Shown here: positions 11,814 through 51,757 of the stretch, piece by piece | Position numbering within the stretch: the stretch's first letter is position 1 | Layout of the letters: every line of letters starts with the position of its first letter | Source: Spirochaetia bacterium | GTDB taxonomy: Bacteria; Spirochaetota; Spirochaetia; UBA9216 | Direction of reading: 5' to 3' | DNA: 64,000 bases | NCBI GenBank assembly: GCA_963675665.1 | Contig: OY776510.1 | Span: forward strand, 128,001-192,000 | Position numbers and translations under genes: made by a program | The notes under the pieces: model-generated | What the model was told of the DNA's origin: nothing | Databases searched by the model: none | The model's input: only the letters and a program-made list of their open reading frames with translations

Positions 11814-11840
11814 ATCTCTCTCCTTATGTAATTTTAAAAG

Positions 11841-11873
11841 AAGTTCCGGGTTTTGGGAAAGTCCCGGAAACTT
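11841..11873. other. Intra-operon stem-loop between uxaA-like and gntP-like genes
   Basis: AAGTTCCGGG...CCCGGAAACTT inverted repeat. Confidence 0.5.
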
Positions 11874-11885
11874 CAATCTTCACTA

Positions 11886-13049: not shown

Positions 13050-13363
13050 TCTGCTGCTCCCTCTTTTTCCCAGTCTCCGCGTCCGCGGATACTGTCGATG
13101 TTTTGAATGTGCACATGCTCTCCGGGTTTAATAGGCTTTGTTGCGATTCCTATTTCTTCACCGTATTTTGTAACCTGCTCTTTTATCCCTATTTCTTTCA
13201 GGGCAATTTTATGCCCATAGGGAATATCATTGAGTACTTTAACCTCAAAACTGTTTCCGTTCTTTTCCATTACGGTCACAGCGCTTCCTGCCGAAGCAGT
13301 ACCGAACAGGGTTGCAACATTGTCATCATCATGATTTTTTATTGCTTTTACCATTTCCTGCAT
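13046..13363 (-). CDS. UxaA-family dehydratase, small (SAF) subunit
   Basis: DDNVAT, IPYGHKIA, KYGEEIG, GEHVH; overlaps large-subunit start. Confidence 0.88.
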   Translation of the reverse strand: MQEMVKAIKNHDDDNVATLFGTASAGSAVTVMEKNGNSFEVKVLNDIPYGHKIALKEIGIKEQVTKYGEEIGIATKPIKPGEHVHIQNIDSIRGRGDWEKEGAAE

Positions 13364-13365
13364 TA

Positions 13366-14640: not shown

Positions 14641-14659
14641 ATATCAATGTTCCATGTGT

Positions 14660-14703
14660 TATGCATCATGTATACATTATACCTGAAAAATAAATCCTGT
14701 CAA
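14660..14703 (-). promoter_or_regulatory. Consensus sigma70 promoter overlapped by a GntR-type palindrome
   Basis: TTGACA-16bp-TATAAT (14703-14676) and perfect palindrome ATGTATACAT (14668-14677) over the start site. Confidence 0.7.
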
Positions 14704-14742
14704 ATTCTTTAGTCATTCAAACCGAAAACTCTATCCTGAATT

Positions 14743-15417
14743 TTACTTAAGAAGGGAATTATTTTTAATATTGCGAAGTATTTCTTCTCTGGCAAGGGTC
14801 AGATGATTATCGCATGACGCAACAGCGGCGGCTTTATCCTTTTTCAGCAGATTGTCGATAATATCGGTATGCTCCCTGATGGAGTCATAAAACCGGTTCT
14901 GTTTTGACAAAGCAAGAACCCTGAACGGACTCACCATCATGGAAACCTTATCAAGGGCTTCTTTTATTACCTTGTTACCGGAAATCTCAACAAGATACTC
15001 GTGAAACTCAGCATCTGTCGCAAGGTATTCCTTCATATCAGAAATATCACCATGCTCAATAAAAGTTTTCCTGAATTTCTTAAGCCGGGATATAATGCTG
15101 TCGTCCAGTTTGTCAACTATCTTCTCAACAGCAAATTTTTCTATAATCAGCCTGAATTCATACGACTCATTAATGTCCCGTACCGTAAACTGTTTTACAC
15201 AGACATATTTATTGGGAATACTCTGAAGAAAACCTTCCCCTACAAGCTGATTGATTGCATTTCGAACAGGAGACCTGCTTACTTCCAGTTTTTCGGCGAT
15301 CTGGACTTCCTGAATACGTTCACCGGGCTTGAGCTCACCGTTGAGAATGCCCGCTTTAAGGACTTCATAAACCTGATCTTTAATTGTTGAAGCTATTTTT
15401 GTATTACCAATACCCAT
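14743..15417 (-). CDS. GntR/FadR-family regulator; start moved to MGIGNTK
   Basis: ELKPGERI, VSRSPVR, FCD domain DAEFH...EH; TTGCCC-17-TATTGT 6 nt before ATG. Confidence 0.88.
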   Translation of the reverse strand: MGIGNTKIASTIKDQVYEVLKAGILNGELKPGERIQEVQIAEKLEVSRSPVRNAINQLVGEGFLQSIPNKYVCVKQFTVRDINESYEFRLIIEKFAVEKIVDKLDDSIISRLKKFRKTFIEHGDISDMKEYLATDAEFHEYLVEISGNKVIKEALDKVSMMVSPFRVLALSKQNRFYDSIREHTDIIDNLLKKDKAAAVASCDNHLTLAREEILRNIKNNSLLK

Positions 15418-15459
15418 GAATAAACAATAAACAAAAAGAACCATCTGGGCAAGATAAAA

Positions 15460-37397: not shown

Positions 37398-38330
37398 CTA
37401 TAAAGCACCGATTTTAATTTTTACTCCGCAGTCTCTGCCGATATCAACAAGGTACTGCAGATCTTCCTTCTTTACAGGCTGCAAATCATGCAGTTTGTAT
37501 TTCCTTCCAAGGCCTTTGTATTTCATGTTGCCGAGCCTGTGATACGGAAGGATCTCTATCCAAAGCAAATTCTTCAATTTCGAAGCCCATTCGAAAATTT
37601 CGCGCTGAATATCCGGCTGATCATTAATTCCGGGAATGGAAGGAACCCGTATAATCATTTTCTTATTGAACCCGTCCAGTTTAATGATATTTTTAAGAAT
37701 TTGATCATTATTGACGCCGGTATACTTTTTATGAAGAACGCTGTCACTGTGCTTAATATCAACATAGATCAAATCAGCGTCCCGTAAAATGTGTAACGAG
37801 CTGTCTTCGTTAGTGTAGAGACATGTTTCAACTGCAACATGAAAATGATAGTCTTTGCAGGCTTTAATCAGCTCTGCTAAAAACTTTGACTGAAGAAGAG
37901 GTTCTCCCCCGGAAAAAGTAACACCCCCTCCTGATTCTATATAAAAGTCCCGGTCTTTTAAAACTTCCGCCATAACCTCGTTTACGGACATTTCCCTGCC
38001 TGTAAACTCGCGCGCACCGTAATAACATGCGCTTACACACTCGCCGCATAATACGCATTTTGAAAAATCTGTATAAATTCCGTATTTATCATCGTACCGA
38101 ACAGCCCCGACCGGACATTTTTCAACACACCGACCGCATAGACTGCATTTATTGGGAAAGTATATAATCTGCGGTTTTTTTATCTGAGATTCGGGATTTG
38201 CGCACCAGTCGCATCTTAACGGACAGCCCTTCATAAAAACAACCGTCCTTATTCCCGGGCCGTCTTCAAGACCATAACGTTCAATATTAAAAATTATACC
38301 CTTCATCTGCCCCATCCTGCTTTCAGGCAT
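37398..38330 (-). CDS. Glycyl-radical enzyme activase 1 (radical SAM with ferredoxin insert)
   Basis: DGPGIRT, GCPLRCDWCANPES, two CX2CX2CX3C, GGVTFSGGEP. Confidence 0.93.
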   Translation of the reverse strand: MPESRMGQMKGIIFNIERYGLEDGPGIRTVVFMKGCPLRCDWCANPESQIKKPQIIYFPNKCSLCGRCVEKCPVGAVRYDDKYGIYTDFSKCVLCGECVSACYYGAREFTGREMSVNEVMAEVLKDRDFYIESGGGVTFSGGEPLLQSKFLAELIKACKDYHFHVAVETCLYTNEDSSLHILRDADLIYVDIKHSDSVLHKKYTGVNNDQILKNIIKLDGFNKKMIIRVPSIPGINDQPDIQREIFEWASKLKNLLWIEILPYHRLGNMKYKGLGRKYKLHDLQPVKKEDLQYLVDIGRDCGVKIKIGAL

Positions 38331-40734
38331 TTACCTCCGCCCTTCCGATAAGATCGTCCTGGCAGGCGCTGTCCAGCAGGGTGAACAGACAGCTGTATCC
38401 GGAAACCCTGACCATCAGGTCTCTGTACATATCCGGATTGGCTTTTGCGGCCTTCAGGGTTGAATTGTCAACAACATTGAACTGGATCTGCTGGCCGTAT
38501 TTATCAAAAAACACCTTTATCAGCGCGGCAATCCGCTTCCGCCCTTCAAGCGATTTCAAAATACCGTTTGCAAGCCTCATATTCAGTATGGCGCCCTTCT
38601 GGAACCATTCCGTCGGCATTTTACTGACGGAAAGCACTGTGGCAGTTGCACCCATTTTCTCCGCCCCGTTGCACGGTGAAATACCGTTGTTGACCGGCTG
38701 ACCGGCTTTTCTTCCGTCGGGAGTTGCTCCGATTAACTTGCCGAACGCAACATTTCCGGTAACGGGGCTGATATTGGTTGAGAAACACCCGGGAACCGGT
38801 CCTTTGCCGTACCTTGAATTCCTGAAATCCTTGTGAAAACTGCTGCCTATAAAGTCGGCGATTCTTACAGACCATTTATCAACTGAATCTTCATCGTTTC
38901 CGAATTTAGGAGCCTTGTTTATCAGAAGCTGCCTTATTTCCTCACCGGTTGGAGATGTTGTCGTATCCTCGAAATTTGAGGACAGGGCATGCATCAACTG
39001 CTCTGAGGTTACCAGATTTTTATCAAATACAGCGTATTCGATTGCCCCGAGAGAATCTCCGGCTGTATTTATTCCGGCTGTCGGCCCTCCGTCTGCGGAA
39101 TAAACGGAACCTCCTTCAATCAGTGAAAGCCCCCGCTCTACGCAGTCTGCTATCAGCGATGATGAAAACGCGTTTATGTCCCGTTCCCTGTGCAGGTCGT
39201 CGCTGATATGTTCCATGATAACAATCAAACTCATGTAATAATTCAGCTGCTTTTTAAACGACTCGAATAATTCTTCAGTACTTTTCAGTTCAGTCAGATC
39301 TCCGTCGCCGGGCAGCAGGGTTATTCCTTTAGCAGGGTCCGTCCCGTTATTCAGGGTTATTTCGAGGACCTTTGCGATATTTAAGCCGCCGCCTTTTGCC
39401 GCAAAATCCCATTTTCCCGGAATAGAAGCTTCAATGCATCCTACCGGGGCCCAGTTTACGGCATCTTCACGGCTAACCCCCATACCTGTAAGGGTTCGTA
39501 TGAAAGCCTTGTCATTATAGAATGCAGGCATACCGCCTTTATGCTTCTGTACAGCCTCCAGAGCCCTTGTTATAAAACCGTCATCGGTACCTTCAAACCA
39601 CTTAACGGAAAGTGATGACGTAAAAAGCTTTACATCCTCATAGGCTTCGATACAGAGCCAGGAAAGATCATTAACAGCGTCCTTTCCGTCAACGGTCTGT
39701 CCTCCGATGGAAAGATTTATTGCCATATGGTAATTCGGCATCATCTGGGTTTCATCCCAGCAGCGCAGTTTATTCAGCGAATTCATTTTTATAACGAACA
39801 GTTCAATTAATACAAGCGCTTCCTCTCTGCTCAAAGAACCGTCTTCAATGTCCGCTGAATACAGCGGATACAGGTACTGATCAAATCTACCGACAGAATT
39901 TGAATGACCGTTGGACTCAATATAATACATCAGAAGTATGAACCAAACGCTCTGAACACCTTCCCTGAAATTCCGCGCGGGATTTTCCGGGACGTTCGCA
40001 CAGCTTTCCGCCATTCGCATCAGTTCCGCTTTTCTTTCAGGATCCTTTTCCTGTTTCGCTTCTTTCAGACATAACTCTGAATAGCGATTTGCAAACCGGA
40101 TAACAGCTTCATTTGAGATAACAACGGCATTTAAAAACCAGTGTTTTTTTATTGCATCCGGCTGCGTCAAATCGAGTTCTTCAAGCTTCTTTTTTGCATG
40201 ATTGATAACATATCTCAATCCCTTCCTGACGACCAGCTCAAAATCAGGAAGCATATTCCCCAGAGCTGCAACTATAACCCAGGTATTGTCTATTACGCCC
40301 ATCTCCCAGGCCTGAGTGCATTCAGGCGGCAGCCGTTTTTTATAGCTTTCAAAAAGGGTCTTTCCTTCCCAGTATTGTATTATTTCCAGCAATTCAGCCC
40401 TTACTTCGTCGCTGCAGATGAACCTGTCGGCAGGTCTCCGGTCCAGCGGATAGGGGATCCCGTTAAGATCATTTTTAAGCCATTCGGTTGAATATTCAGG
40501 GTAGATAGGTGCAGCCCAGGGCCTGCTTGTCTGATTGCCGACAATAAGTTCGCCTTCCGATACAAAAAGCGACATATTATCAAGTACATTTGCAAATGCC
40601 TTTGCTCTTCTTACCGCTATATTTTCGCCCTCGGTCTGCTTCATTGACTGTGTAAAAAACCTGGCCCTTTCGCTGCAGATTTCGGGTACTGTTTCAAAAA
40701 AACGGCTTCGTAAACTTTCGATTCTTGTATCCAT
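38323..40734 (-). CDS. Glycyl radical enzyme 1 (non-PFL, YbiW-like)
   Basis: ESNGHS, GRFDQYLYP, Cys loop VGCIE, ATPDGR, Gly loop RVSGY. Confidence 0.92.
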   Translation of the reverse strand: MDTRIESLRSRFFETVPEICSERARFFTQSMKQTEGENIAVRRAKAFANVLDNMSLFVSEGELIVGNQTSRPWAAPIYPEYSTEWLKNDLNGIPYPLDRRPADRFICSDEVRAELLEIIQYWEGKTLFESYKKRLPPECTQAWEMGVIDNTWVIVAALGNMLPDFELVVRKGLRYVINHAKKKLEELDLTQPDAIKKHWFLNAVVISNEAVIRFANRYSELCLKEAKQEKDPERKAELMRMAESCANVPENPARNFREGVQSVWFILLMYYIESNGHSNSVGRFDQYLYPLYSADIEDGSLSREEALVLIELFVIKMNSLNKLRCWDETQMMPNYHMAINLSIGGQTVDGKDAVNDLSWLCIEAYEDVKLFTSSLSVKWFEGTDDGFITRALEAVQKHKGGMPAFYNDKAFIRTLTGMGVSREDAVNWAPVGCIEASIPGKWDFAAKGGGLNIAKVLEITLNNGTDPAKGITLLPGDGDLTELKSTEELFESFKKQLNYYMSLIVIMEHISDDLHRERDINAFSSSLIADCVERGLSLIEGGSVYSADGGPTAGINTAGDSLGAIEYAVFDKNLVTSEQLMHALSSNFEDTTTSPTGEEIRQLLINKAPKFGNDEDSVDKWSVRIADFIGSSFHKDFRNSRYGKGPVPGCFSTNISPVTGNVAFGKLIGATPDGRKAGQPVNNGISPCNGAEKMGATATVLSVSKMPTEWFQKGAILNMRLANGILKSLEGRKRIAALIKVFFDKYGQQIQFNVVDNSTLKAAKANPDMYRDLMVRVSGYSCLFTLLDSACQDDLIGRAEVNA

Positions 40735-40749
40735 ATAACCCCCCTCTCC

Positions 40750-42276
40750 TCAGGCTCCGCAGGCAGCTAATTCTTCGCTTACCATTGGCGTAAGCAGATC
40801 TGTCTTACACAGGAACCTCTCACTGTTATCAAATTCATGAACAACTTTACCTTTTTTCAGGACAAGTATCCTGTCTGAGAGGCTTAAAATTTCTTCAAGT
40901 TCATCTGATATGAATATTATGGATGTTCCTTCTTTTGCCAGGGAATCGATAAGACTATATATCTCTTCCTTGGCACCGACATCAACACCCCTGGTCGGCT
41001 GATCCAGTATTATCACTCTTGAACCGATGGAAAGCCACTTTCCGATTACTACTTTCTGCTGGTTTCCGCCGCTTAAAAAACGGACTTCCTGTTCTTCCGA
41101 ATGACATTTTATGCAAAGGAAATCTATCATTCTGCGGATCGATTTCCGCATCGCCCCGTAATTTATAACACCATATTTCGTGCTTTTTTTCAGGGATGCA
41201 AGCGAGATATTATCCCTGATTGTTCTTTTCAAAACAAGCCCTTCTGTTTTCCGGTCTTCAGGTATAAATGCCAGTTTGGCCGACACCGCCTTTGCGGGGG
41301 AACTAACATTTATCTTTTTACCGTCGAGGATTATTTCTCCGGAGGCGGTCTCTTCAGCTCCAAAAATCATCCGCGCCAGTTCCGTTCTGCCGGAGCCGAC
41401 AACTCCCGCTATTCCCAGAACTTCTCCCTTTCTCAGGTTAAAAGACACATCCTTTACGATTCCGTTCTTCTGGGTCAACTCCTTTACCTGAAGAACGGAA
41501 TCTTCCGACAGGTTGTCCCGGATATATTTTTTCTCGGAGTCCGAACAGTGACCTATCATGCATTCAACAATCTGCTTTTTTGTAAAGTCTTCGATATTCC
41601 GGGTTGTTACATTCTTTCCGTCACGAAGCACCGTCACCCTGTCCGCCACAGTAAAGATCTCTTCAAGAAAATGTGAAATATAAATAACAGATATACCTTG
41701 ATTACTAAGATCTTTTATTACTGAAAATAATTTTTCCGTTTCGCTGATTGAAAGCGACGAAGTAGGCTCATCCATTACCACAACACTTGATTGAATTGCC
41801 ACAATTCGTGCAATAAGAACAAGCTGCTGCATTGCCGGAGATAACGATTCTACTTTCCGGTTAGCGTCAATTGGAAAACCGAGGGAATCCAGCAGCGCCT
41901 GAGCTTCCTTTCTCATCGAGGGTCTGTCGATTACAGGAATGTTTTGCCCTTTTTTTTCCCTGCCTAAAAATATATTCTCGCTTACATCGAGATTTGTTAC
42001 TAAATCCAGTTCCTGATGAATCATGGTTATGCCGTGGTTAAGTGCATCAATGGGATCATTAAAATTCAATATTTCATTTTTTAAAACAATTTCTCCAGTA
42101 TAATTAACATAGATACCGTTCAGTATTTTCATCAAGGTTGACTTTCCAGCGCCGTTTGCTCCTACAATCGCATGGACTTCCCCTCGTTTAACATCAAGAT
42201 TGACGCTGTCAAGCACCCGCACTTTATCAAATTCTTTTGTGATATTTTTCATCTGAAGAACATAACTGTCATTCAT
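40750..42276 (-). CDS. Sugar ABC transporter ATPase (two NBDs, RbsA-like); start moved to MNDSYV
   Basis: GANGAGKST, MDEPT, PEDRK, LSGGNQQK, GVDVGAK. Confidence 0.92.
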   Translation of the reverse strand: MNDSYVLQMKNITKEFDKVRVLDSVNLDVKRGEVHAIVGANGAGKSTLMKILNGIYVNYTGEIVLKNEILNFNDPIDALNHGITMIHQELDLVTNLDVSENIFLGREKKGQNIPVIDRPSMRKEAQALLDSLGFPIDANRKVESLSPAMQQLVLIARIVAIQSSVVVMDEPTSSLSISETEKLFSVIKDLSNQGISVIYISHFLEEIFTVADRVTVLRDGKNVTTRNIEDFTKKQIVECMIGHCSDSEKKYIRDNLSEDSVLQVKELTQKNGIVKDVSFNLRKGEVLGIAGVVGSGRTELARMIFGAEETASGEIILDGKKINVSSPAKAVSAKLAFIPEDRKTEGLVLKRTIRDNISLASLKKSTKYGVINYGAMRKSIRRMIDFLCIKCHSEEQEVRFLSGGNQQKVVIGKWLSIGSRVIILDQPTRGVDVGAKEEIYSLIDSLAKEGTSIIFISDELEEILSLSDRILVLKKGKVVHEFDNSERFLCKTDLLTPMVSEELAACGA

Positions 42277-42289
42277 TCCAAACCTTCTT

Positions 42290-43279
42290 TTAATCTCTCT
42301 TTGTATTGGATAAACTGTCAATACCGACTGCACCGAGAATTATCATTCCGGTAATTGCTGACTGCCAGAAGGGATTAACCCCGAGCAGCTGAATAAGATT
42401 GAGTATCAGCCCCAGAATTATAGTTCCTATAACGGAACCCAGGATATTTCCGCGACCTCCTTCCAGCGAAATTCCCCCGACGATACACCCGGCTATTGCA
42501 GTAAGCTCATACCCCTGACATGCGTCCGCAGTCGCCATCAATACCCTTAAATTTAATAAAACCCCTCCGAGAGACGCTAACATTCCACAGTACATAAACG
42601 CCAGAATTCTCAGTTTTTGAGTCTTCACCCCGGAAAGCCATGATGCGTTTTCATTTCCGCCTATTGCATACAGATACTGACCGAAGGTGGTGTATCTCAG
42701 GACAAAGAACAGAACAACAGCAAGAACAATCCATATTGACGCTGAAATTGGAAAAGGTCCTATTTTTCCGAGACCAATCACGCCGTATGCCCTTGGAACC
42801 CCCATTACAGGAAAACCGTTGGTTACAATATAAATAATACCCCTTCCGATAGTCATTGTTCCCAGAGTCGTTACAAAATAGTTGATTTTAGCTTTGGTTA
42901 TTAATAGACCGTTTACAAGACCCATAATGCAGCCTACCGACAGGCCGCCTGCAACACCAATAACAAATCCGAACTCACGGAAAAGGTGTGTTGAAACTAT
43001 TGCCGTCAGCGCTGCCGTTGAGCTGACTGATAAATCAATCGCTCCAGTTATAAGAACAAAAGACATTCCCAGAGCAATGGTTCCATATACTGCATTATGG
43101 TTAAAAATATTAAAAATGTTTTCAATAGAACGAAATGTAGGTGAAATTATTCCGCTTACAATAAACATACCTATTAAAACGAAGAACATGGTATTTTCTC
43201 TTTTCTTCAACACCCTGCCGAGTCCAAGAGCGTTTTGCTTTATAAAACTACCCTCAACTCCGTTTATGATTTCTGACAC
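42290..43279 (-). CDS. Sugar ABC transporter permease (RbsC-like)
   Basis: IDLSV, YAIGGNE.AS.LSG, YELTAIAGCIVGG.SLEGGRG. Confidence 0.92.
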   Translation of the reverse strand: MSEIINGVEGSFIKQNALGLGRVLKKRENTMFFVLIGMFIVSGIISPTFRSIENIFNIFNHNAVYGTIALGMSFVLITGAIDLSVSSTAALTAIVSTHLFREFGFVIGVAGGLSVGCIMGLVNGLLITKAKINYFVTTLGTMTIGRGIIYIVTNGFPVMGVPRAYGVIGLGKIGPFPISASIWIVLAVVLFFVLRYTTFGQYLYAIGGNENASWLSGVKTQKLRILAFMYCGMLASLGGVLLNLRVLMATADACQGYELTAIAGCIVGGISLEGGRGNILGSVIGTIILGLILNLIQLLGVNPFWQSAITGMIILGAVGIDSLSNTKRD

Positions 43280-43304
43280 TTTAGCATCTCCTTATCTCAA
43301 CCGG

Positions 43305-43399
43305 AAAACCGGCTTTTCCTTCATTATGCATCTAACGGGAACCTCAGAACAAAGTGCTCTGAGGTTCCCTCATTAGAAGCCGGTTTTTCTGAAACCGGC
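43305..43399. other. Nested stem-loops between the SBP and permease genes
   Basis: GGGAACCTCAGA/TCTGAGGTTCCC perfect 12-bp stem, outer AAAACCGGCTT/AAGCCGGTTTT, and alternative GCCGGTTT/AAACCGGC. Confidence 0.6.
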
Positions 43400-43424
43400 C
43401 CGTTAATATACAATCTTTTGATCT

Positions 43425-44396
43425 CTACCAGGCTGCTCCATAATTCCCGATATTATCAACAGTTACTTTCGGCAAATCAGTCCAGGTCTGTTTTTCTATG
43501 TTCCTGTCTCCGTTTAGGTAGCGAACAGCCACCTCTATACCGAGATTACCCTGTTCCTGTGGATCCTGAAGAACCGTACCGTAGATTTCTCCTTCATGGA
43601 TTGAATCAACAACTTCCTGAGGCAGATCAAAACATACAATTTTACCAAGAAGTTCATCTCTTCCTGAAGACTTTACCGCTTCAACAGCGCCAAGGGCTTC
43701 GTAAGGCCCCTGCAATACGATTGCGTCAATTTCTCCCTTTTTATACTTTAAAAGGAAATTCTCAACTACAACTATTGTTTTAGCCTTATCCCAGTCTTCC
43801 GGCTGTTTTGCAAGGATATTGATACCCGGAGCATTTTTGGAAATATAATCCTCAAGCCCCTGTTCCCTCATTACCTGAGGCGAACTTCCGAGGGAGCCCT
43901 GACAGAGGACGATATTTCCATTACCAGCCAGCAATTCATCAAGGATTTCCCCCTGAATAGAGCCTCCGGTACGGTCATCACATCCTACATATGTTACTAT
44001 ATCAGGACCTTCTCCGAGCTGACGGTTTACTGTTACTATAGGAATACCCGCCGCGATGCATTTATCAGCTACAGGAACCAGTGCATCAAGCTGCGCTGCG
44101 ACAATGATAACAAGATCTTTCTTCTGAATGATAAAAGTTTCAATCTGGCTCATCTGAACATTCGGATCTGATTTTCCGTCCTGAATATCAAGATTTGCGC
44201 CCAACCTGTCTGCAGCACCTTCCATACCCTTCATCATACGAACAAAAAAGGGAATTTTGAAATCGGCCATAGCAACGCCGATGTTATACCCCTGACTGGA
44301 TGTTCCTGTATCTTCCTGTGATCCGTTTGCAAAACTAACCCCGCATACCAGCAGCATTGCAGTTGCCATCACGATTACCAGCATCTTTCTTTTCAT
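43425..44396 (-). CDS. Sugar/polyol ABC substrate-binding protein (RbsB-like)
   Basis: Signal peptide; PFF, AGIPIVTVNR, YVGCDD, TVLQDP. Confidence 0.9.
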   Translation of the reverse strand: MKRKMLVIVMATAMLLVCGVSFANGSQEDTGTSSQGYNIGVAMADFKIPFFVRMMKGMEGAADRLGANLDIQDGKSDPNVQMSQIETFIIQKKDLVIIVAAQLDALVPVADKCIAAGIPIVTVNRQLGEGPDIVTYVGCDDRTGGSIQGEILDELLAGNGNIVLCQGSLGSSPQVMREQGLEDYISKNAPGINILAKQPEDWDKAKTIVVVENFLLKYKKGEIDAIVLQGPYEALGAVEAVKSSGRDELLGKIVCFDLPQEVVDSIHEGEIYGTVLQDPQEQGNLGIEVAVRYLNGDRNIEKQTWTDLPKVTVDNIGNYGAAW

Positions 44397-44493
44397 GCTA
44401 ATCCTCCTTAAAATAATTACCCTGCCCTGATTTTCCAGGACTTAATACTTTACGATTACCACGTCATTTCCGGAAATAATTTCTCATGGTTGA

Positions 44494-44562
44494 TGTATTA
44501 TAGATTACGTTTACATATAAGTAAAATAAATATATTTAATGTTTACTATGCATTAAACTTAT
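44494..44562 (-). promoter_or_regulatory. Promoter of ABC-GRE1 operon with LysR boxes
   Basis: TTTACT-17-TATAAT on minus strand; T-N11-A boxes over the -35 and at 44548-44562 (ATGCATTAAACTTAT). Confidence 0.7.
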
Positions 44563-44576
44563 ACTATAATAATTAT

Positions 44577-45461
44577 ATGAACCTGGATTGGTACAGAGTA
44601 TTTTTTCAATTAGCTAAAAGCGGCAGTTTTTCAAAAGCCTCAAAGGAACTGTTTGTAACCCAGCCTGCCGTCAGTAGAACAATCGCACAACTGGAAGACT
44701 TTTTAGGGTGTGAATTATTTTACAGATCGCGTCAGGGTGTAACTTTAACAGAACAGGGAAAGGTCTTGTATGAGAACCTAGAAAATGCATTCGATTCAAT
44801 CTCAGCTGCGGAAAAAGCTATTGAAGAAATACAAACCCTGAAAAAAGGGGAAATAAAATTCGGAGCAAGCGATATTTTATTTAGAAACTATCTTGTTGAG
44901 ATTCTAAAACTGTTTAAATCGGAGTATCCTAATATAAAAATAAAAATTGTCTCACATAGTACTTCAAATATTATAAACCTGCTAAAAAGAGGAGAAATCG
45001 ATTTCGGCATAGTAAATTTACCGGTTGCTACTGACAAGAAACTAGCATTTAAACCCATCATAACAGTACAGGACTGCTTTATAGTGGGCGAAAAATATAA
45101 ACATCTGGTTGAAAAAAGAATTCATCTTAATGAATTAGTTGATTATCCTTTTATACTATTGAATAATTCAACAAATACCAGAAAACATATAAACCAGCAT
45201 TTTAAAAATAATTCCATCTCGATTATTCCTGATTTTGAATTTGGAAATACTGATTTGCTTGTAGAATTTGCAAAAAATGATTTTGGTATTGCTTATGTCT
45301 GCAAAAATTTTGTTAAACAAAATCTTGAATCAGGCCAGGTTTATGAAATAAATCTTTATGAAGAGATACCTCCACGAGAAATCAGTGTTGCCTGGTTAAA
45401 CAGCATACCTCTTTCGGTAGTGTCAAAAGCCTTTATTGAGATGCTGGATAAACCTGTATAA
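44577..45461 (+). CDS. LysR-family regulator; start moved to MNLDWY
   Basis: SFSKASKELFVTQPAVSRTIAQLE...LF.R; TATAAT 6 nt before ATG. Confidence 0.93.
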   Translation: MNLDWYRVFFQLAKSGSFSKASKELFVTQPAVSRTIAQLEDFLGCELFYRSRQGVTLTEQGKVLYENLENAFDSISAAEKAIEEIQTLKKGEIKFGASDILFRNYLVEILKLFKSEYPNIKIKIVSHSTSNIINLLKRGEIDFGIVNLPVATDKKLAFKPIITVQDCFIVGEKYKHLVEKRIHLNELVDYPFILLNNSTNTRKHINQHFKNNSISIIPDFEFGNTDLLVEFAKNDFGIAYVCKNFVKQNLESGQVYEINLYEEIPPREISVAWLNSIPLSVVSKAFIEMLDKPV

Positions 45462-45507
45462 AAACCAGGTGTGAATTATTAACAGTCCAATAAATATCTG
45501 TATCTCT

Positions 45508-46125
45508 CTAGAAATTTAAATCAAATATATCCTGCGGTTGTTTAAAAATATATTCTGCATTAATATCTGTAATTGTTTTAGCACCCCAGGATGCCAAACC
45601 GAAATCTATTTCCGCATTTATGGCACAAAGGCTGTCATACAGAGTATCTCCAATATAGATCACGGAAGACGGATCAGCTCCTGATAATTCCAAATATTTC
45701 AATAATGGAGCCGGCTGCGGTTTATGGTTTAGAGTGTCATCCACACAAACGGTATATTTAAAATATTTTTTTAAATCAAGATTATCAAATAATTTATCCA
45801 GAGCATTTCTCGTTCTGGAGGTTACAATTCCCATAGTGATGTCTTTATTATATAAGGCGTCAAGCATGTTTCTTATACCGTTAAATAAAACAAGCGATTT
45901 ACTTTCATGTCTTAAATAAAAATCCCATTCCTCCTTGGCCTGTTTAATATTCTTAATTCCCAATAGTCTCAAAGCCTCTACGCCGGGAATACCTAATACA
46001 AAAGACAATTCTTTATTTTCTTTTTTTATTCCATATTTTTCGACAACTTTACTCAATGTTGAGATAATTACATTTTCAGAATCAATCAATGTACCGTCTA
46101 CATCGAAAACAAAATTTAGATACAT
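45508..46125 (-). CDS. HAD-IA family phosphatase; start moved to MYLNFVFD
   Basis: FDVDGTLIDS, VTSR, KPQP, YIGDT.YD. Confidence 0.88.
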   Translation of the reverse strand: MYLNFVFDVDGTLIDSENVIISTLSKVVEKYGIKKENKELSFVLGIPGVEALRLLGIKNIKQAKEEWDFYLRHESKSLVLFNGIRNMLDALYNKDITMGIVTSRTRNALDKLFDNLDLKKYFKYTVCVDDTLNHKPQPAPLLKYLELSGADPSSVIYIGDTLYDSLCAINAEIDFGLASWGAKTITDINAEYIFKQPQDIFDLNF

Positions 46126-46222
46126 AAAAACATCCTTATACAACAATAAACAATTGCTATAAACATATACAGGGAGTATCCGGGCGATCATAAATGATAT
46201 ATCCAATCAGGTATGAAGCTTT

Positions 46223-47164
46223 TCATTGGCCGCTGCCGCCAACACTTACCATAAACCCAAAATCCGTGAGAATATTTGCTGTTTTTGTAATCTCTTCAAG
46301 GCTTATCCCCTGCTGGTTTTTAAAACTGTAATCCTTATCCAACCCTTCCCATTTTGTCTCTCCGGCCTGATGGAAAGGCATCAGATGTATTTCCTCAATT
46401 CCCGCAGCTTTACAAAAGTTCCCCATAGTCTCAATTTCCCGTGTCGAATTGTTTACACCGGGAATTAAGGGATATCTTACAATAATCTTTTTCCCCTTGT
46501 CCACGGCATCACGTAAATTTTGCCGGATCAGCTTGTCATCAACTCCTGTATATTCTCTGTGCATATCTGCATTCGGGTGTTTAATATCAAAGAGTATTAA
46601 ATCAGCGGGAAGGATAACACGACGAAAATTTTCAGTTGAAGCATACCCACAGGTCTCTATTGTGATATGGATATCGTCTTCTTTCAGAGAAATTATAAGC
46701 TGTTCCGCGAAAATACTTTGTAAGGTTACCTCCCCGCCGGACAGCGTAACACCGCCGCCGCTGTTCATATAGAAAACAAGATCGCGACTGACAATTTCTC
46801 TGAGCTCATCAACCGTATAAAATTTCCCTATCAGCCTCCGCGCCTCCGACGGACATACTTTTGCGCACTCACCACAGTCGGTACATTTTAAACGATCAGT
46901 TATCAGTTTTTCATCACTGATGTATATTGCGTCAGATTTACAGACTTCGGCACACTTTCCACAACCGATACAGGCATCCTGATCATAAATTATTTCAGGC
47001 ATCATTCTGAACGTTTCAGGATTATGACACCATTTACACCTAAGAGGACACCCCTTGAAAAAAACTGTGGTCCGGAGCCCCGGACCGTCATGGACACAGT
47101 ATCTCTGAATATCCGAAATTACAGCAATGGTGCCGGATTTTATTCTATCTTGCTCCCTCATCAT
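46223..47164 (-). CDS. Glycyl-radical enzyme activase 2 (radical SAM with ferredoxin insert)
   Basis: HDGPGLRT, GCPLRCKWCHNPET, two CX2CX2CX3C, GGVTLSGGE. Confidence 0.93.
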   Translation of the reverse strand: MMREQDRIKSGTIAVISDIQRYCVHDGPGLRTTVFFKGCPLRCKWCHNPETFRMMPEIIYDQDACIGCGKCAEVCKSDAIYISDEKLITDRLKCTDCGECAKVCPSEARRLIGKFYTVDELREIVSRDLVFYMNSGGGVTLSGGEVTLQSIFAEQLIISLKEDDIHITIETCGYASTENFRRVILPADLILFDIKHPNADMHREYTGVDDKLIRQNLRDAVDKGKKIIVRYPLIPGVNNSTREIETMGNFCKAAGIEEIHLMPFHQAGETKWEGLDKDYSFKNQQGISLEEITKTANILTDFGFMVSVGGSGQ

Positions 47165-49437
47165 ATACCATGCTTTACCCTTTTTATCATAATATCCTGA
47201 TGCATCTTCGGCAGTGCGACAAAATACCCCGAATACCCCCCTATGCGCACTCTGAGCCCCTTATAAGCCTCCGGTTGTTTCTGGGCATTACGCATCATTT
47301 CCTCACTGACTCCGGTAACAGTCAAGATGTTTCCTCCCAACTCCATAAAGGAGCGGATAATTCCTGTTAGCCTTTGTATCCCTTCATCACCAGCTGCCTC
47401 ATTTGCATTAATTTGTATATCCAGCGGGCAACCGCCGAAATACGGCAGAAGATCCGGCTTGGTGCATGATAAAATAGCTGCTGTCGGACCGTTTGTATCA
47501 CAACCGACTGACGGAGAATAATTACTGGATATTGTGGTTTCTGCACTGCGTCCGTCCGGAGAAGCCCCGCAGCGACCTCCCAATTTTGCGTAATGCTCAA
47601 ATGTGCCCAACGCGAGAGGAAGCATCATCTTCGGGTCTTCCGCCTGTAAATCCTTCACATAAGCAGCTAAATCACCCAATATACGTATCATCAGCTCATC
47701 CGCATAATTATCATCGTTTCCGAATTTTAAGCCCCTTGATGCAAGTGTTTCACGAAGAACCTCATAACCTTTAAAATTTTCACTGGTAGCATTTATTATC
47801 TGCTTCATAGTGAATTTATTTTCCTCAAAAACAAATTTCCTGATTGCGGCAAGAGAATCGACGGTATTTGCCATTCCGGAGATTATAGGCGGATACATCA
47901 TATACCTGGCCCCGCCGTTCGTAATATCCAGACCGTTTTCAATACAGTCGTCAATAAATATCGACAGCATCGGGTCCGGTGCGATTGTGCTGTGCACCCC
48001 GTAGATATTTCTTCTTGTTCTGATTCCATCGCTTATCGCTTTCTTCATATGGGAAAGATAAGCATCATACAGCTGCTCAAAAGCCGTAAATTCTTTCGCA
48101 TCCCCGGTATCGAGCTCACATTCTCTTGTCTTCCGAACCAGGCTGCAGCCGTTATGAAGCGTATATTCCAGCTGTAGAAGGGATTCAATATCAACATGGT
48201 TGTGATCAGTACATCCGGGGATAAGCGTTTCCCAGCACCCGTCATTTGAATAATCGCGCGCATCCTCCAGCGGCACGCCCTTTTCGGTAAATCCCGGTAT
48301 TATTTTTTCATCATTATAAATGGCAGGTTCGCCGCTTCCCGAACGCAGTATTCGTGCACATTCCTCATATAAACGCGGTGGAGATCCTTTAAAAAACCGG
48401 ACTGACATCACTGGAGCTATCAGTTCAAGCTTATTCCATAACCGCAAGATCATATAAGTCAGCTCGTTTGTCGCATCGTTGCCATCCCTTTTCTGACCGC
48501 CGATTATTGCATTCATAAACCAGGAATTTGCTCCGATTCCGTAGTTCCCGGTTCCGGGCGCAGTAAAATACGGAGGGACCTTTTCTGAAAGATCGATAGC
48601 CTTTCCGCCCGGGGCAAAATCCGTTACCTCTGCATGGCTTTCCCAGGAATCCGGACTTGTCTGGATGCGTTCACTGAATTTTGCAAGCCAGGAGGCTAAA
48701 AGCTCTTCCGCATATTCCTGTGATATCAAACCGCTTTCAGTGTCCTCTTTATAGAAAGGATAGAAGTACTGGTCGCAGCGCCCGACAGGAATCAAATCCA
48801 TTGTGGATTGGAGGGCAATATAAACAATCCAGAAACACTGTAATGCTTCATGAAGCGTCTCCGGCGCATTTTCCGGTGTTTTTTCAAGGATCCTTGCGAT
48901 TTCCAGAAGTTCATTGCGCCTGGCTGCATCGGATTCATTCAACGATTCAAACTGCGCGATTTTAGCGTAACGTTGAGCGAAACGTTTCAGGGCATCCAGA
49001 GATATAAACATCGCTTCATATTCAGATATCTTTCTTTCATCACTTTCAAGCTTTAATTTTTCTAAAATCTTTTCACGATAACCATGCAATCCAAGCTTTA
49101 GAAGCTTCTCAAAATTTATAGGCAGATGAGCCCATACAGAGTTTACCCCGACCCCTTTTTTTGCTGCCTCCTCTTTTTCTTCAGGGGTGGCATATTCAGG
49201 GAATTCACGTCCCAGTTCGCTGCTGGCCATTCCGGCGATGCCGACAATCAATTCGTAAGGTCTGATATATGCCGGCATGTTATTTATCATTAAATCTATT
49301 GCCATTGCCTTGCGTATAACAATCGGCAAAGATCCGGCCTTTTCGTCCGTCAATACAGTGAGCTCACTGCCCCACCATTCTTTTTTTTCTTTGAAACCGT
49401 CAAACATGCTTTTTTTTATTTTTTCTATTCTGGTCAT
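47161..49437 (-). CDS. Glycyl radical enzyme 2 (non-PFL, GCWE Cys loop)
   Basis: GRCDQY, DYSNDGCWE, KFGNDD, ASPDGR, Gly loop RIGGYS. Confidence 0.9.
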   Translation of the reverse strand: MTRIEKIKKSMFDGFKEKKEWWGSELTVLTDEKAGSLPIVIRKAMAIDLMINNMPAYIRPYELIVGIAGMASSELGREFPEYATPEEKEEAAKKGVGVNSVWAHLPINFEKLLKLGLHGYREKILEKLKLESDERKISEYEAMFISLDALKRFAQRYAKIAQFESLNESDAARRNELLEIARILEKTPENAPETLHEALQCFWIVYIALQSTMDLIPVGRCDQYFYPFYKEDTESGLISQEYAEELLASWLAKFSERIQTSPDSWESHAEVTDFAPGGKAIDLSEKVPPYFTAPGTGNYGIGANSWFMNAIIGGQKRDGNDATNELTYMILRLWNKLELIAPVMSVRFFKGSPPRLYEECARILRSGSGEPAIYNDEKIIPGFTEKGVPLEDARDYSNDGCWETLIPGCTDHNHVDIESLLQLEYTLHNGCSLVRKTRECELDTGDAKEFTAFEQLYDAYLSHMKKAISDGIRTRRNIYGVHSTIAPDPMLSIFIDDCIENGLDITNGGARYMMYPPIISGMANTVDSLAAIRKFVFEENKFTMKQIINATSENFKGYEVLRETLASRGLKFGNDDNYADELMIRILGDLAAYVKDLQAEDPKMMLPLALGTFEHYAKLGGRCGASPDGRSAETTISSNYSPSVGCDTNGPTAAILSCTKPDLLPYFGGCPLDIQINANEAAGDEGIQRLTGIIRSFMELGGNILTVTGVSEEMMRNAQKQPEAYKGLRVRIGGYSGYFVALPKMHQDIMIKRVKHGI

Positions 49438-49474
49438 ATTGCTCTCCTGATGTTTAGTTTCATGCCTGCTAAGA

Positions 49475-51370
49475 TTACTGCTGACTTATATACTCCCCGA
49501 CCCAGTCAAGATTTAAGGACATCAGGCGGGTTTTTGAAGGCTCACCTTTTTCTCCGACCCACCCCGCCATTTCGTAATACTGCTCTCTTGTTTCATTAAA
49601 ATCGGCTTCATTAACGACCTTCCCTTCCGAAATACCATCCGCTAAAGGAGTCGACAGTTTAAGCGGTAATTTATCGTCATCCTTATCAAATCCTTCGCGG
49701 ATATTGAATGCGCGCATCATCTGCAAACCGCGCTCTCCAACCATCAGCATCTCGTAAAGATTTGTTTCCCACCCTGTCGCAAAGTTGATAGCGTCCACCA
49801 GTTCATCAAAGCTGTACGCTCCGCCGAAACCGAATATCATAATGCATACCGATGCTGTATCAACCAGAGCGTATGCTCTTTGAGTCCGCCAGAACAATTT
49901 CGCTTTTTCGGAGTTAAGCTCATCAGGAGCTTCAATCCTGTCGAATCCAAAACTTTTCAGCCTATTCGACAGAGGATAGGTCCCAAGGCTCGGATCCATT
50001 TCCACTGAAACATGATCCGAGCCGAAAGATACCAATGCATATGACAACCCTAAAACGGCTTTAGTCTGCGGCATATGCGCAGGAAACTCTTTCTTTTTAA
50101 CCGTGATTAAAAGCTTACTGCTGTTATTTCCGAAAATTCCGGAAAGCCTCTCCGAGCCGAGAGCGATAAGCTTGCCGAATCCAGTTCCAGTACCAGTCAT
50201 TTCAGCCAACCGGATTACTGATTCGGAATTACCGAAATGGCAGTCGAATCCTTCCGTATCTTCCGCAGTGATAATTCCCTTCTCAAAACATTCCATGATA
50301 AAGCCCATTGTTGCACCGAACGAGACTGTATCCATTGCATACATGGCGCAAATCTCATTGATTTTACAGATAGCGAGCTTATCGGATATCCCGAGATTGG
50401 AACCGCACATTCCGATTGTTTCATATTCAGGTCCACCGTACTTTGCATCTATCCGGTCGGTCTTGCTTTTGTCCACATGACGCTTGCAGCTTTGTGCACA
50501 GGCATAACACGTGCCCGGTTTGATTATTTCTTCATTCCAGGCTTCCGGCATCAGTTTATCAACATTTTCGAATGTTCCTGATGTCCAGTTTCTGGTCGGC
50601 AATCCCCCCAGGGCGGAATTTTCCACAACACAGCCTATTGTTCCGTTCTGTTTGAAACTCTGAAGACCGACGCTTTCACGTATTCTGTTAATTCCCTTCC
50701 GGGCAAAGATTTTCATACCTTCCGGATCAAAAAAATCCGGTTTCTGCGTTCCGCGAACGGCAATGGCTCTTAAATTCTTGGAACCCATCACCGCACCGAG
50801 CCCCCCCCTGCCGTTAAAATGCGCAAGTTCATTTACAATATTAGCGTATCTACACAATGTTTCGCCCGCGCAGCCTATTTGTGCTACTCTGATTTTTTGA
50901 TCTTCATGATAATTTCTGATATGTGCTTGCGCTTCTCCTGTTGTTTTTCCCCATATTTCCGCTGCATCAAGCAGTGAATATTCTCCGTCACAGATCCACA
51001 GATACGAAGGAGTTTCCGCTTTTCCGGTCAGAACTATCGCATCAAAACCGGCTTTTTTCATCTCAGGCGCAAAGTAACCGCCGCCCTCACTTGTCGCAAT
51101 CCCGCCGGTAAGCGGAGATTTGGCTGTTACGGAATGCCTGGAAGCACCGGAAATATTTGATCCTGTAAGCGGACCGACTGTAAAAGCAATAACATTGTCC
51201 GGCGATAATGGATCAACACCCTGTTCTGTTCCCTGCATTACATAGTAAACACCCATACAGCTGCCGCCGACATACTTACGATAGAAATCTTCATTTGGTC
51301 TTTCTATTTCAAATTTCTGTTCAGTTAAATTAATATGCAGTATTTTACCGTTGTATCCTTTCATCCTCAC
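49475..51370 (-). CDS. Aldehyde:ferredoxin oxidoreductase family (W/Mo-pterin)
   Basis: GYNGKIL, KSPLTG, GRGGLGAVMGSKNLRAI, CYACAQSC, GPEYET, FNIREG. Confidence 0.92.
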   Translation of the reverse strand: MRMKGYNGKILHINLTEQKFEIERPNEDFYRKYVGGSCMGVYYVMQGTEQGVDPLSPDNVIAFTVGPLTGSNISGASRHSVTAKSPLTGGIATSEGGGYFAPEMKKAGFDAIVLTGKAETPSYLWICDGEYSLLDAAEIWGKTTGEAQAHIRNYHEDQKIRVAQIGCAGETLCRYANIVNELAHFNGRGGLGAVMGSKNLRAIAVRGTQKPDFFDPEGMKIFARKGINRIRESVGLQSFKQNGTIGCVVENSALGGLPTRNWTSGTFENVDKLMPEAWNEEIIKPGTCYACAQSCKRHVDKSKTDRIDAKYGGPEYETIGMCGSNLGISDKLAICKINEICAMYAMDTVSFGATMGFIMECFEKGIITAEDTEGFDCHFGNSESVIRLAEMTGTGTGFGKLIALGSERLSGIFGNNSSKLLITVKKKEFPAHMPQTKAVLGLSYALVSFGSDHVSVEMDPSLGTYPLSNRLKSFGFDRIEAPDELNSEKAKLFWRTQRAYALVDTASVCIMIFGFGGAYSFDELVDAINFATGWETNLYEMLMVGERGLQMMRAFNIREGFDKDDDKLPLKLSTPLADGISEGKVVNEADFNETREQYYEMAGWVGEKGEPSKTRLMSLNLDWVGEYISQQ

Positions 51371-51385
51371 CTCAATTCTTTAGAA

Positions 51386-51646
51386 TCAGCCGCCTGATAA
51401 AAAAGGTATTATCATAAAAGAATCCCCTTCTTTTACCGTAATATCTTCCTTAATCGCTCTAGCCAAAGGAATCCCTCTGATCATCATGGTATACGGGGTC
51501 TCGATTCCGTAATTTGTATCCAAAAAACTCGAAACATATTGTGAAGCATTTCTGATTTCATCATCAACATAAAGCGTTTCGAATTTTACACCTGTTATAT
51601 TTTTATATTCACCAATATATTCAATCGTGATTTTGACACCTTTCAT
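51386..51646 (-). CDS. MoaD/ThiS-family sulfur carrier
   Basis: 86 aa ending KEGDSFMIIPFLSGG; adjacent to AOR. Confidence 0.82.
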   Translation of the reverse strand: MKGVKITIEYIGEYKNITGVKFETLYVDDEIRNASQYVSSFLDTNYGIETPYTMMIRGIPLARAIKEDITVKEGDSFMIIPFLSGG

Positions 51647-51688
51647 ATGGCCTTTGTATGAAATTCCTTTTATATCAATAATCTGCTT

Positions 51689-51757
51689 TGTATTATATTT
51701 CAGAATTATATATAAGTAAAATGCATATTTTTTATAATATATATAATTATTATTTAT
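51689..51757 (-). promoter_or_regulatory. Promoter of MoaD-AOR-GRE2 operon with LysR boxes
   Basis: TTTACT-17-TATAAT on minus strand; ATAA-N7-TTAT at 51743-51757; aligns without gaps to 44494-44562. Confidence 0.7.

Follow-up and report, generated by a model that had tools for sequence, protein, structure and literature searches.

A probable single regulon of two glycyl radical enzyme operons around a lysR gene in a Spirochaetia bacterium, with a predicted route from an aldehyde to a tungsten oxidoreductase

We have analysed a stretch of 64,000 nucleotides from the genome of a Spirochaetia bacterium (contig OY776510.1, positions 128,001 to 192,000, referred to below as the window), which contains an island of eleven genes arranged as two minus-strand operons with a plus-strand lysR gene between them. 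The two operons very probably form one co-regulated unit. They encode two different glycyl radical enzymes (GRE1 and GRE2), an activase for each, a sugar-type ATP-binding cassette (ABC) importer and a predicted tungsten aldehyde:ferredoxin oxidoreductase (AOR). As the original prediction, made from the bare sequence, had supposed, they belong together: a promoter element unique in the genome precedes both, and a rearranged locus of a second organism unites both GREs, both activases, a phosphatase-like hydrolase of the HAD family and a LysR 63% identical to that of the window. The sequence evidence supports a reading as one regulon with two uncharacterised radical enzymes which would pass an aldehyde to the AOR. 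The island looks like a GRE-based anaerobic catabolic cluster with a route that is apparently undescribed, and its GRE1 shows an unusual active-site change common to the whole GRE1 family.

The gene map was established from the list of open reading frames (ORFs), Pfam, NCBIfam and the translations of the window. All eleven genes, and the two same-strand operons around lysR, lie where they had originally been placed. Among the rows listed for sequenced DNA runs aligned to the window are contigs identical to it throughout the island, together with many fragments that are less than 90% alike; as one contig covers the entire window and may be its source, these are not independent support. The features are the following.

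37398..38330, minus strand: activase 1, a radical SAM protein with a two-cluster ferredoxin insert (TIGR02494, 336 bits against a cut-off of 174; Radical_SAM and Fer4; CPLRCDWC; two Fer4 motifs); overlaps the GRE1 stop codon by 8 nt
38323..40734, minus strand: GRE1, 803 aa (PFL-like, 621 bits, E 4e-186; Gly_radical; GCIE; RVSGYS; Cys433/Glu435, Asn160, Lys447, Gly779)
40750..42333, minus strand, probable start Met at 42276: CUT2-type ABC ATPase with two fused nucleotide-binding domains (ABC_tran twice)
42290..43279, minus strand: CUT2-type ABC permease (BPD_transp_2, 137 bits)
43425..44396, minus strand: periplasmic sugar-binding protein of the ribose-binding-protein type (Peripla_BP_4, 197 bits)
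44495..44551, minus strand: 57-nt promoter/operator element of the ABC-GRE1 operon (-35 TTTACT at 44525-44520; -10 TATAAT at 44502-44497; ATA-N5-TAT-like block at 44535-44549)
44542..44570, plus strand: putative lysR promoter, suggested by 10 of 12 matches in a consensus scan
44577..45461, plus strand (ORF open from 44490): LysR-type regulator (HTH_1 and LysR_substrate; no NCBIfam equivalog reached)
45508..46125, minus strand (ORF open to 46206): HAD-IA phosphatase-like hydrolase (HAD_2, 135 bits; DVDGT, VTSR, GDTLYD)
46223..47164, minus strand: activase 2, radical SAM with ferredoxin insert (TIGR02494, 339 bits against a cut-off of 174; CPLRCKWC); overlaps the GRE2 stop codon by 4 nt
47161..49437, minus strand: GRE2, 758 aa (PFL-like, 440 bits; Gly_radical; NDGCWE; RIGGYS; Cys401-Trp-Glu403, His104, Asp214, Gly734)
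49475..51370, minus strand: tungsten-type AOR (AFOR_N, 246 bits; AFOR_C, 328 bits; CYACAQSC)
51386..51646, minus strand: MoaD/ThiS-like protein of 86 aa ending in Gly-Gly (ThiS/MoaD PF02597, E 0.03, below the cut-off)
51690..51746, minus strand: second 57-nt promoter/operator element, before the MoaD-AOR-GRE2-activase 2-HAD operon (-35 at 51720-51715; -10 at 51697-51692)

Read along the minus strand, the first operon encodes the binding protein, the permease, the double-domain ATPase, GRE1 and activase 1, with genes that overlap or are at most 15 nt apart except for a 145-nt spacer 3′ of the binding-protein gene. This spacer (43280-43424, minus strand) contains a long GC-rich inverted repeat at about 43337-43369 and a second, shorter one; the repeat may form a hairpin that stabilises or attenuates the mRNA and determines how much binding protein is made relative to permease. 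The second operon runs in the order MoaD/ThiS-like gene, AOR, GRE2, activase 2 and HAD. The lysR gene is divergent from the ABC-GRE1 operon and is transcribed towards the HAD end of operon 2. Its HTH_1 match sets in at residue 32, and 44577 is accordingly the likely start. The putative -10 box of lysR (44542-44577, plus strand) ends 6 nt before this probable ATG, so that the lysR transcript is maybe leaderless, or else the start lies elsewhere in the ORF opening at 44490.

The evidence for joint control comes from the promoters. A TTTACT-17-TATAAT sequence is present upstream of the binding-protein gene and upstream of the moaD-like gene; both are among the top matches of a consensus scan, and both are embedded in a longer stretch that can be aligned without gaps. 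The 13-mer ATTTTACTTATAT occurs exactly twice on the two strands of the 5.15-Mb genome, at the two operon promoters, with about 0.6 occurrences expected, and ACTTATAT-N12-TATAAT is found genome-wide only at the same two places. The pattern ACTTATA-N13-TAYAAT has three occurrences in the genome, the third of which lies inside an 880-aa ORF and was dropped as a member of the regulon. Among 119 loci (1.72 Mb) this pattern occurs only twice, both times in the locus L099, once before GRE2 and once before GRE1. A 57-column matrix made solely from the two L099 sites was then scored over 10,301,014 genome positions: the ABC-GRE1 element came first (30.0) and the MoaD-operon element second (26.5), with the next best site at 20.7 and hence no third regulon site near the top two at any of these positions. 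That sites from another organism rank the two window sites first and second is good evidence for a single regulon and for an element that predates the split of the two organisms.

In all four sites, two in the window and two in L099, the -35 box is preceded at a distance of about 20 nt by an ATA-N5-TAT-like block, which at the ABC promoter overlaps the promoter-like lysR site lying back-to-back with that promoter. Such an overlap of back-to-back promoters is the usual layout of LysR systems, with LysR binding sites near -65 and -35. We infer that LysR binds the conserved block of the shared element, and the LysR encoded between the operons is most likely their regulator. The original prediction had put both operons under this one LysR. 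The shared element agrees with the idea; the position of the gene does so for the ABC-GRE1 operon only, since lysR converges on the 3′ end of operon 2, and joint control therefore rests on the element and not on gene order. A search for strict LysR boxes gave only AT-rich matches upstream of moaD, and the element aligned over the four sites was used instead.

L099 came from a metagenome scan with GRE2 and carries, on one strand, a PfkB kinase, LysR, GRE2, activase 2, HAD, GRE1, activase 1 and a CUT2 ABC importer. Identity to the window proteins is 76% for both GREs, 63% for LysR and for each of the two activases, and 45% for the HAD protein. The lysR gene is here directly upstream of GRE2, and the HAD gene lies between activase 2 and GRE1. 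The pairing of GRE1 with GRE2 is known from this genome and from L099. The PfkB kinase was considered as a partner of the island and set aside; the most similar protein of this genome has 45% identity to it, is encoded at 1.55 Mb and has no link to the island.

Both GREs match PF02901 and PF01228 and contain the R-[VI]-x-G-[YF]-S motif, and the gene of each activase overlaps the stop codon of its own GRE. They are indeed clearly different from each other, as anticipated from their lengths and their GCIE and GCWE loops, with 28% identity, and the assignment of a separate ferredoxin-insert activase to each is borne out by the TIGR02494 scores. Both were compared with the NCBIfam equivalogs for HypD, CutC, two sulfopropanediol dehydratases (HpsG and HpfG), the PflD type, IAD, HPAD and PFL, and neither reached any of these, all scores being about half the cut-off or less (HypD 521 against 1100 and CutC 496 against 1050 for GRE1; HypD 396 against 1100 for GRE2).

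The best solved relatives of GRE1 are glycerol dehydratase (1r8w, 540 bits), diol dehydratase (527 bits), a 'glycyl radical protein' (9rco) and YbiW; the score for the broad TIGR01774 subfamily is below its cut-off (640 against 678). GRE1 keeps Cys433, Glu435 and an NGHS motif. Asn160 stands at the position of a His that is found in glycerol dehydratase (His164), diol dehydratase, 9rco, YbiW and PflD, while Lys447 replaces Asp447 of glycerol dehydratase and Ala338 replaces its Tyr339. Without exception, the 132 sequences of the family that were aligned have Asn160 and Lys447, as well as the Cys and the Glu of the C-x-E loop; this set consists of GRE1, 120 database matches and 11 translations from loci, all at least 50% identical. 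We take Asp447 of glycerol dehydratase to be a catalytic residue. For His164 a review of June 2026 gives the role of proton donor to the leaving hydroxyl. The original prediction had grouped GRE1 with the enzymes carrying a plain GCxE loop, such as the glycerol and propanediol dehydratases, and on this point it has to be revised: GRE1 lacks both the His and the Asp of glycerol dehydratase and is not a plain diol dehydratase.

GRE1 shares with YbiW the GCIE..GKW sequence and a six-residue insert, RYG[KR]GP, both of which are lacking in PflD and in the glycerol and diol dehydratases. A role of this insert in binding phosphate was rejected, since PflD also acts on a 6-phosphate yet lacks it. According to the residues of the pocket there are at least three groups in the GRE1 family, YHMAINL (the GRE1 type), YQMF[IV]NL and YHLAENL. 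At least 120 cluster representatives turned up in the search with GRE1, none of them less than 56% identical.

The best solved relatives of GRE2 are diol dehydratase (5i2a, 342 bits, aligned in four pieces), CutC, HypD (320 bits) and glycerol dehydratase (312 bits). Compared with other GREs it is shorter by about 50 residues in the N-terminal region and carries an additional stretch of some 45 residues. His104, Cys401, Trp402 and Glu403 are invariant in 22 of 22 sequences. GRE2 retains the His equivalent to His164 of glycerol dehydratase, the position of Asp447 aligns ambiguously, and Asp214 occupies the position of the HypD Asp, where glycerol dehydratase has His281. The sections of the June 2026 review that treat characterised GRE eliminases and isomerases mention no function that matches GRE1 or GRE2. 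Together with the equivalog scores and the absence of a close solved enzyme, this agrees with the expectation that neither GRE would fall in a characterised isofunctional group. A layout of a GRE with a sugar ABC importer and an AOR was likewise not described in the abstracts among the literature matches listed, in keeping with the original view that no pathway with this arrangement has been characterised.

The nearest solved enzymes to the AOR are themselves AORs (9mqx, 358 bits; 1aor, 347 bits) and not GAPOR or FOR; a tungsten content is predicted. The small gene before it had been called MoaD. Its size of 86 aa, the GG end and a weak full-length match that recurs lend this name weak support, the window copy scoring below the PF02597 cut-off (15.3 bits, E 0.03, against 22.5). 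The weak full-length match was seen in all 4 tested copies beside related AORs, one of which exceeded the cut-off at 22.9 bits. Of the 16 AOR paralogues in the genome only one other, 63% identical, has a MoaD-like partner. That pair lies about 47 kb to the right of the island (L097, genome 210000-229999), in a region which also holds KduI/IolB, a GH3 fragment, a glyoxalase, alanine dehydrogenase, a class III aminotransferase, two dehydrogenases, a CUT2 importer and a B12-binding and hydantoinase-like pair.

What GRE2 might produce can be approached through its relatives. The scan of genome contigs with the GRE2 alignment used two patterns, one of which is generic for GREs, and most of the 80 loci retained belonged to a 28-35% identical family; these are uninformative on GRE2, and only L001-L008 (38-50%) were used. 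Ten loci of the GRE2 clade were examined (the window, L099, L098, L001, L003-L007 and L096, the last containing the genome's own 42% paralogue). In six of the ten an AOR or a PF00171 aldehyde dehydrogenase is found within 10 kb, and in four the aldehyde oxidiser directly adjoins the GRE-activase pair: the AOR in the window, an aldehyde dehydrogenase in L098 (GRE2 identity 78%) and in L001 (50%), and MoaD-AOR in L007. These aldehyde dehydrogenases show 45-48% mutual identity and most resemble lactaldehyde dehydrogenase, below its cut-off. The AOR with its MoaD-like partner thus appears as an exchangeable accessory, an aldehyde dehydrogenase being in its place in L098. The strongest indication of an aldehyde as the product of GRE2 is that two unrelated aldehyde-oxidising enzymes occur at one and the same position, and the proposal of an aldehyde fed to the AOR fits these data. 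The AORs of L006 and L007 are 62-65% identical to that of the window and keep the MoaD-like gene; in L006 the pair has as neighbours a PBP_like_2 binding protein, an ABC ATPase and two moeA genes, which we read as tungstate or molybdate uptake and assembly of the pterin cofactor. CUT2 importers are present in six of the ten loci (the window, L099, L001, L006, L007 and L096). In L096 (genome 4808000-4827999) the operon of the GRE2 paralogue comprises a zinc alcohol dehydrogenase, a CUT2 importer, the GRE, an activase, a split transketolase, a short-chain dehydrogenase/reductase and GntR, and looks like another unassigned radical sugar or polyol locus.

The importer of the island is of the CUT2 type (Peripla_BP_4, BPD_transp_2 and a double-domain ATPase). 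No substrate-specific NCBIfam equivalog was reached by any of its components, the ATPase being like xylose, arabinose and ribose types and the permease like AraH and RbsC, all below cut-off. The solved protein nearest to the binding protein is 2ioy (148 bits), and with generic ribose-binding proteins at no more than this score as its nearest solved relatives the ligand cannot be read from the sequence. Among solved structures the HAD protein comes closest to phosphoglycolate phosphatases (83 bits), and it reached no NCBIfam equivalog.

These elements can be combined in a model for the island. The ribose-type ABC system would import a carbohydrate-like compound, possibly a monosaccharide, a polyol or an anhydro- or deoxy-sugar. 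LysR would sense this compound or an intermediate derived from it and switch on both operons through the shared element. Each GRE, activated by its own radical SAM activase, would then carry out one of two different C-O cleavages in sequence on the same carbon skeleton. GRE2, with its Cys-x-Glu loop and the diol-dehydratase His, would be a 1,2-eliminase giving an aldehyde, which the AOR, co-transcribed with a MoaD-like cofactor protein, would oxidise to an acid with reduction of ferredoxin. The other C-O cleavage would fall to GRE1, a member of the Asn/Lys subfamily with a YbiW-like Cys loop. The HAD protein may remove phosphate from an intermediate, whose phosphorylation is itself suggested by the presence of this protein; the sole parallel for such a role is E. 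coli ybiV beside ybiW. We favour this model, with one regulon, two sequential radical steps and an aldehyde going to the AOR, but hold it tentatively and would stop short of calling it probable.

A somewhat less likely arrangement, though one to be taken seriously, would be a single regulon with two parallel branches, in which the GREs take different but related imported substrates such as epimers, enantiomers or ring and open forms, and only the GRE2 branch ends in an aldehyde. The evidence from co-regulation and synteny is the same for both arrangements. Elsewhere either GRE family is found by itself, accompanied by an ABC importer of its own, and according to the 2026 review known GRE pairs do divide stereoisomers between them, YbiW/PflD the gluco and manno epimers and HpyG/HpzG the L and D forms. 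We nevertheless prefer sequential action, since a single importer, with its one binding protein, and a single regulator serve two GREs in both loci, since the aldehyde oxidiser is attached only to GRE2, and since the sets of catalytic residues (His in GRE2, Asn/Lys in GRE1) are very different. These sets and the large indels differ more than we would assume for enzymes acting on mirror-image substrates of one reaction. The HAD protein is left without a role by parallel branches as well.

Several observations weigh against the model of a single regulon with sequential steps. There is no strict palindromic T-N11-A LysR box (at least 5 pairs) in the ABC promoter. The importer is not a conserved member of the island: that of L099 (17589-21307) is of the same CUT2 type as that of the window (40750-44396) but is not orthologous to it, the binding protein being 25%, the permease 33% and the ATPase 43% identical. 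The examined part of L099 lacks an AOR/MoaD pair, so that the joint occurrence of both GREs with an ABC importer and an AOR in other genomes, raised in the original prediction, is seen in L099 for both GREs and a CUT2 importer and not for the AOR, and in more distant genomes either GRE family is found without the other. L099 alone among the foreign loci is long enough to show the pairing of GRE1 and GRE2; L098 ends 218 nt past activase 2 and is uninformative in this respect. None of five genomes with GRE2 relatives of 38-50% identity contains a GRE1-like gene (E ≤ 1e-150). Among 400 genomes of the same class, GRE1-family genes (50-58% identity) are present in 15 and GRE2-like genes (40-42%) in 5, with no other genome of this sample having both families; in a set of 40 relatives no GRE2 was found at E ≤ 1e-100. 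Copies of the two GREs at the level of orthologues are rare; the closest relatives are P0122 (88%) and P0125-P0127 (73-74%) for GRE2 and P0002-P0014 (65-80%) for GRE1. In addition, tblastn revealed no GRE2, HAD, LysR or AOR beside the GRE in loci L108-L117, which belong to a sister clade of GRE1. As the families occur apart in distant genomes, each of them can work alone. Finally, there is no kinase in the island and no third element site near one, and a phosphorylated intermediate would therefore have no source within the regulon.

Could the two operons be independent catabolic units that are adjacent by chance, with LysR controlling only the divergent ABC-GRE1 operon? The genome, a single 5.15-Mb contig, is rich in such genes, with 10 PFL-like (GRE) genes, 16 AOR genes, at least 60 matches to the window permease (CUT2) and at least 32 to the binding protein. 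In simulations two of the 10 GREs lie within 8.9 kb of each other in 15% of random placements, and a GRE lies within 3 kb of one of the 16 AORs in 17%, so that the GRE/GRE/AOR adjacency alone is not significant. The orientation of lysR and the distant relatives of each GRE that are found alone would also be compatible with chance. In contrast, the shared promoter element together with the L099 synteny is significant: the genome-unique element precedes both operons and both L099 GRE genes, the matrix made from L099 alone ranks the window sites first and second, and GRE2, activase, HAD, GRE1 and activase are contiguous in L099. We consider adjacency by chance improbable. A second pair of GRE genes, 7-10 kb apart and with an adjacent activase match for only one of them, is present at 2043348-2055197 of the genome; random placement yields two GRE pairs spaced by no more than 10 kb in about 1% of trials.

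It is still more improbable that the GREs have ordinary known functions, GRE1 as a glycerol or propanediol dehydratase and GRE2 as a hydroxyproline, choline or diol enzyme, as their best solved relatives and Cys-x-Glu loops might suggest, considering the low equivalog scores, the loss of His164, Asp447 and Tyr339 in GRE1, the fragmented alignment of GRE2 to 5i2a and a sugar-type ABC context with neither a microcompartment nor a 1,3-propanediol dehydrogenase.

The model of two sequential steps in one regulon could be extended further. The GRE1-type enzymes might represent a new mechanistic class of sugar-acting GRE and the island a two-step radical deoxygenation, a cousin of 'anhydroglycolysis' independent of a phosphotransferase system (PTS) and of an aldolase, which would convert an imported sugar, polyol or anhydro-sugar to a deoxy-acid with the AOR passing electrons to ferredoxin. 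This is a speculative extension and, as it stands, we think it unlikely to hold in full.

Between 33.6 and 57.7 kb of the window Pfam detected no shell protein, CoA-acylating aldehyde dehydrogenase, alcohol dehydrogenase, PTS component, kinase or aldolase, and the absence of these genes noted from the bare sequence is upheld. The flanks of the island are apparently unrelated to it, with mobA, a DUF445 protein and an M32 peptidase on one side and a TPR protein and a 1516-aa BcrAD/BadFG-type protein on the other. The latter (53180-57730, plus strand) combines a BcrAD/BadFG ATPase with DUF2229 ('CoA enzyme activase') just past the island on the opposite strand, and a link to the island is not evident. 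Further away (10437-15444, minus strand) the window contains a sugar-acid cluster with a GntP permease, an altronate/galactarate dehydratase-like protein, a LarA-like protein (lactate racemase family) and GntR.

GREs allow strict anaerobes to make chemically difficult bond cleavages, and newly assigned members have opened up pathways from choline to trimethylamine and for hydroxyproline, isethionate and anhydro-sugars. Whole GRE clades are still unassigned according to the 2026 review. The present locus offers a well-defined test case in which a common operator and conserved synteny link two unassigned clades, with LysR as a candidate sensor of the inducer, a binding protein amenable to ligand screening, and an aldehyde read-out through the AOR or the NAD-type dehydrogenase of a relative. 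In GRE1 it presents a family-wide swap of the residues to which dehydration is attributed. An answer would give a function to at least two widespread sequence clusters, and could reveal a new radical route of carbohydrate fermentation coupled to tungsten enzymes.

Among known systems, the glycerol dehydratase (1r8w/1r9d) and the propanediol dehydratase (5i2a) are the best solved relatives of GRE1 and among those of GRE2. The likeness extends to the Cys-x-Glu loop, the glycyl radical motif, the ferredoxin-insert activase and, for GRE1 only, the NGHS motif. Apart from the exchanges in the active site of GRE1 and its additional insert, and from the truncated N-terminal region, insert and Asp for His281 of GRE2, it is the context that differs, a sugar ABC importer being present in the island instead of a microcompartment and a propanediol dehydrogenase. 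HypD (6vxc), the third-best solved relative of GRE2, has like it an acidic residue at the position of His281 ('wDaf' in HypD, 'mDli' in GRE2). Its score is far from the cut-off, and the island has a sugar importer and an aldehyde oxidiser but no proline-pathway genes. The AOR shares both Pfam domains and the Cys-x2-Cys-x3-Cys motif with the classical tungsten enzymes (P. furiosus 1aor; 9mqx), from which it differs by its place in a GRE operon behind a MoaD-like gene and as one of 16 paralogues.

The sister clade of GRE1 (54-58% identity), which includes a copy in this genome at about 5.05 Mb, has the same invariant Asn160/Lys447 signature, a CUT2 importer and its own activase, and the genome's own copy also has an AOR. 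It occurs in 15 of the 400 genomes of the same class. Its pocket residues are YHLAENL and LGNVLPDH, compared with YHMAINL and LGNMLPDF in GRE1, and its context comprises DeoR and LacI, DUF4037/DUF4125, DUF2291, sometimes an FGGY kinase and, in six of ten loci scanned with Pfam, a FucA-like class II aldolase, without GRE2, HAD or LysR. The copy in this genome (L095, 5034000-5053999) constitutes a second locus with a GRE, 56% identical to GRE1, and an AOR of 678 aa, together with a 469-aa aldolase-II-like protein, a CUT2 importer with DUF2291, an activase, LacI, a FucA-like aldolase and DeoR; this uncharacterised module recurs without the AOR in the 15 genomes just mentioned.

The E. coli enzymes YbiW (8id7) and PflD (8id0), the C-O lyases of 'anhydroglycolysis' acting on 1,5-anhydroglucitol-6-P and 1,5-anhydromannitol-6-P, are likewise sugar-acting GREs. 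YbiW is close to GRE1 in its Cys loop and insert, but overall identity is only 35% (32% for PflD), and both enzymes retain the His that GRE1 lacks. The gene of a HAD-type sugar phosphatase, ybiV, adjoins ybiW, much as the HAD gene lies beside the GRE genes of the island; in the K-12 chromosome (L118, 856000-866000) ybiV, ybiW, ybiY (the activase) and fsaA are found together, directly followed by moeB and moeA. The E. coli loci depend on PTS uptake and fructose-6-P aldolases, in contrast to the ABC importer and the AOR of the island, which has neither a PTS nor an aldolase. Moreover, ybiW and pflD are located far apart on the E. coli chromosome, whereas the two GRE genes of the island are, very probably, co-regulated neighbours.

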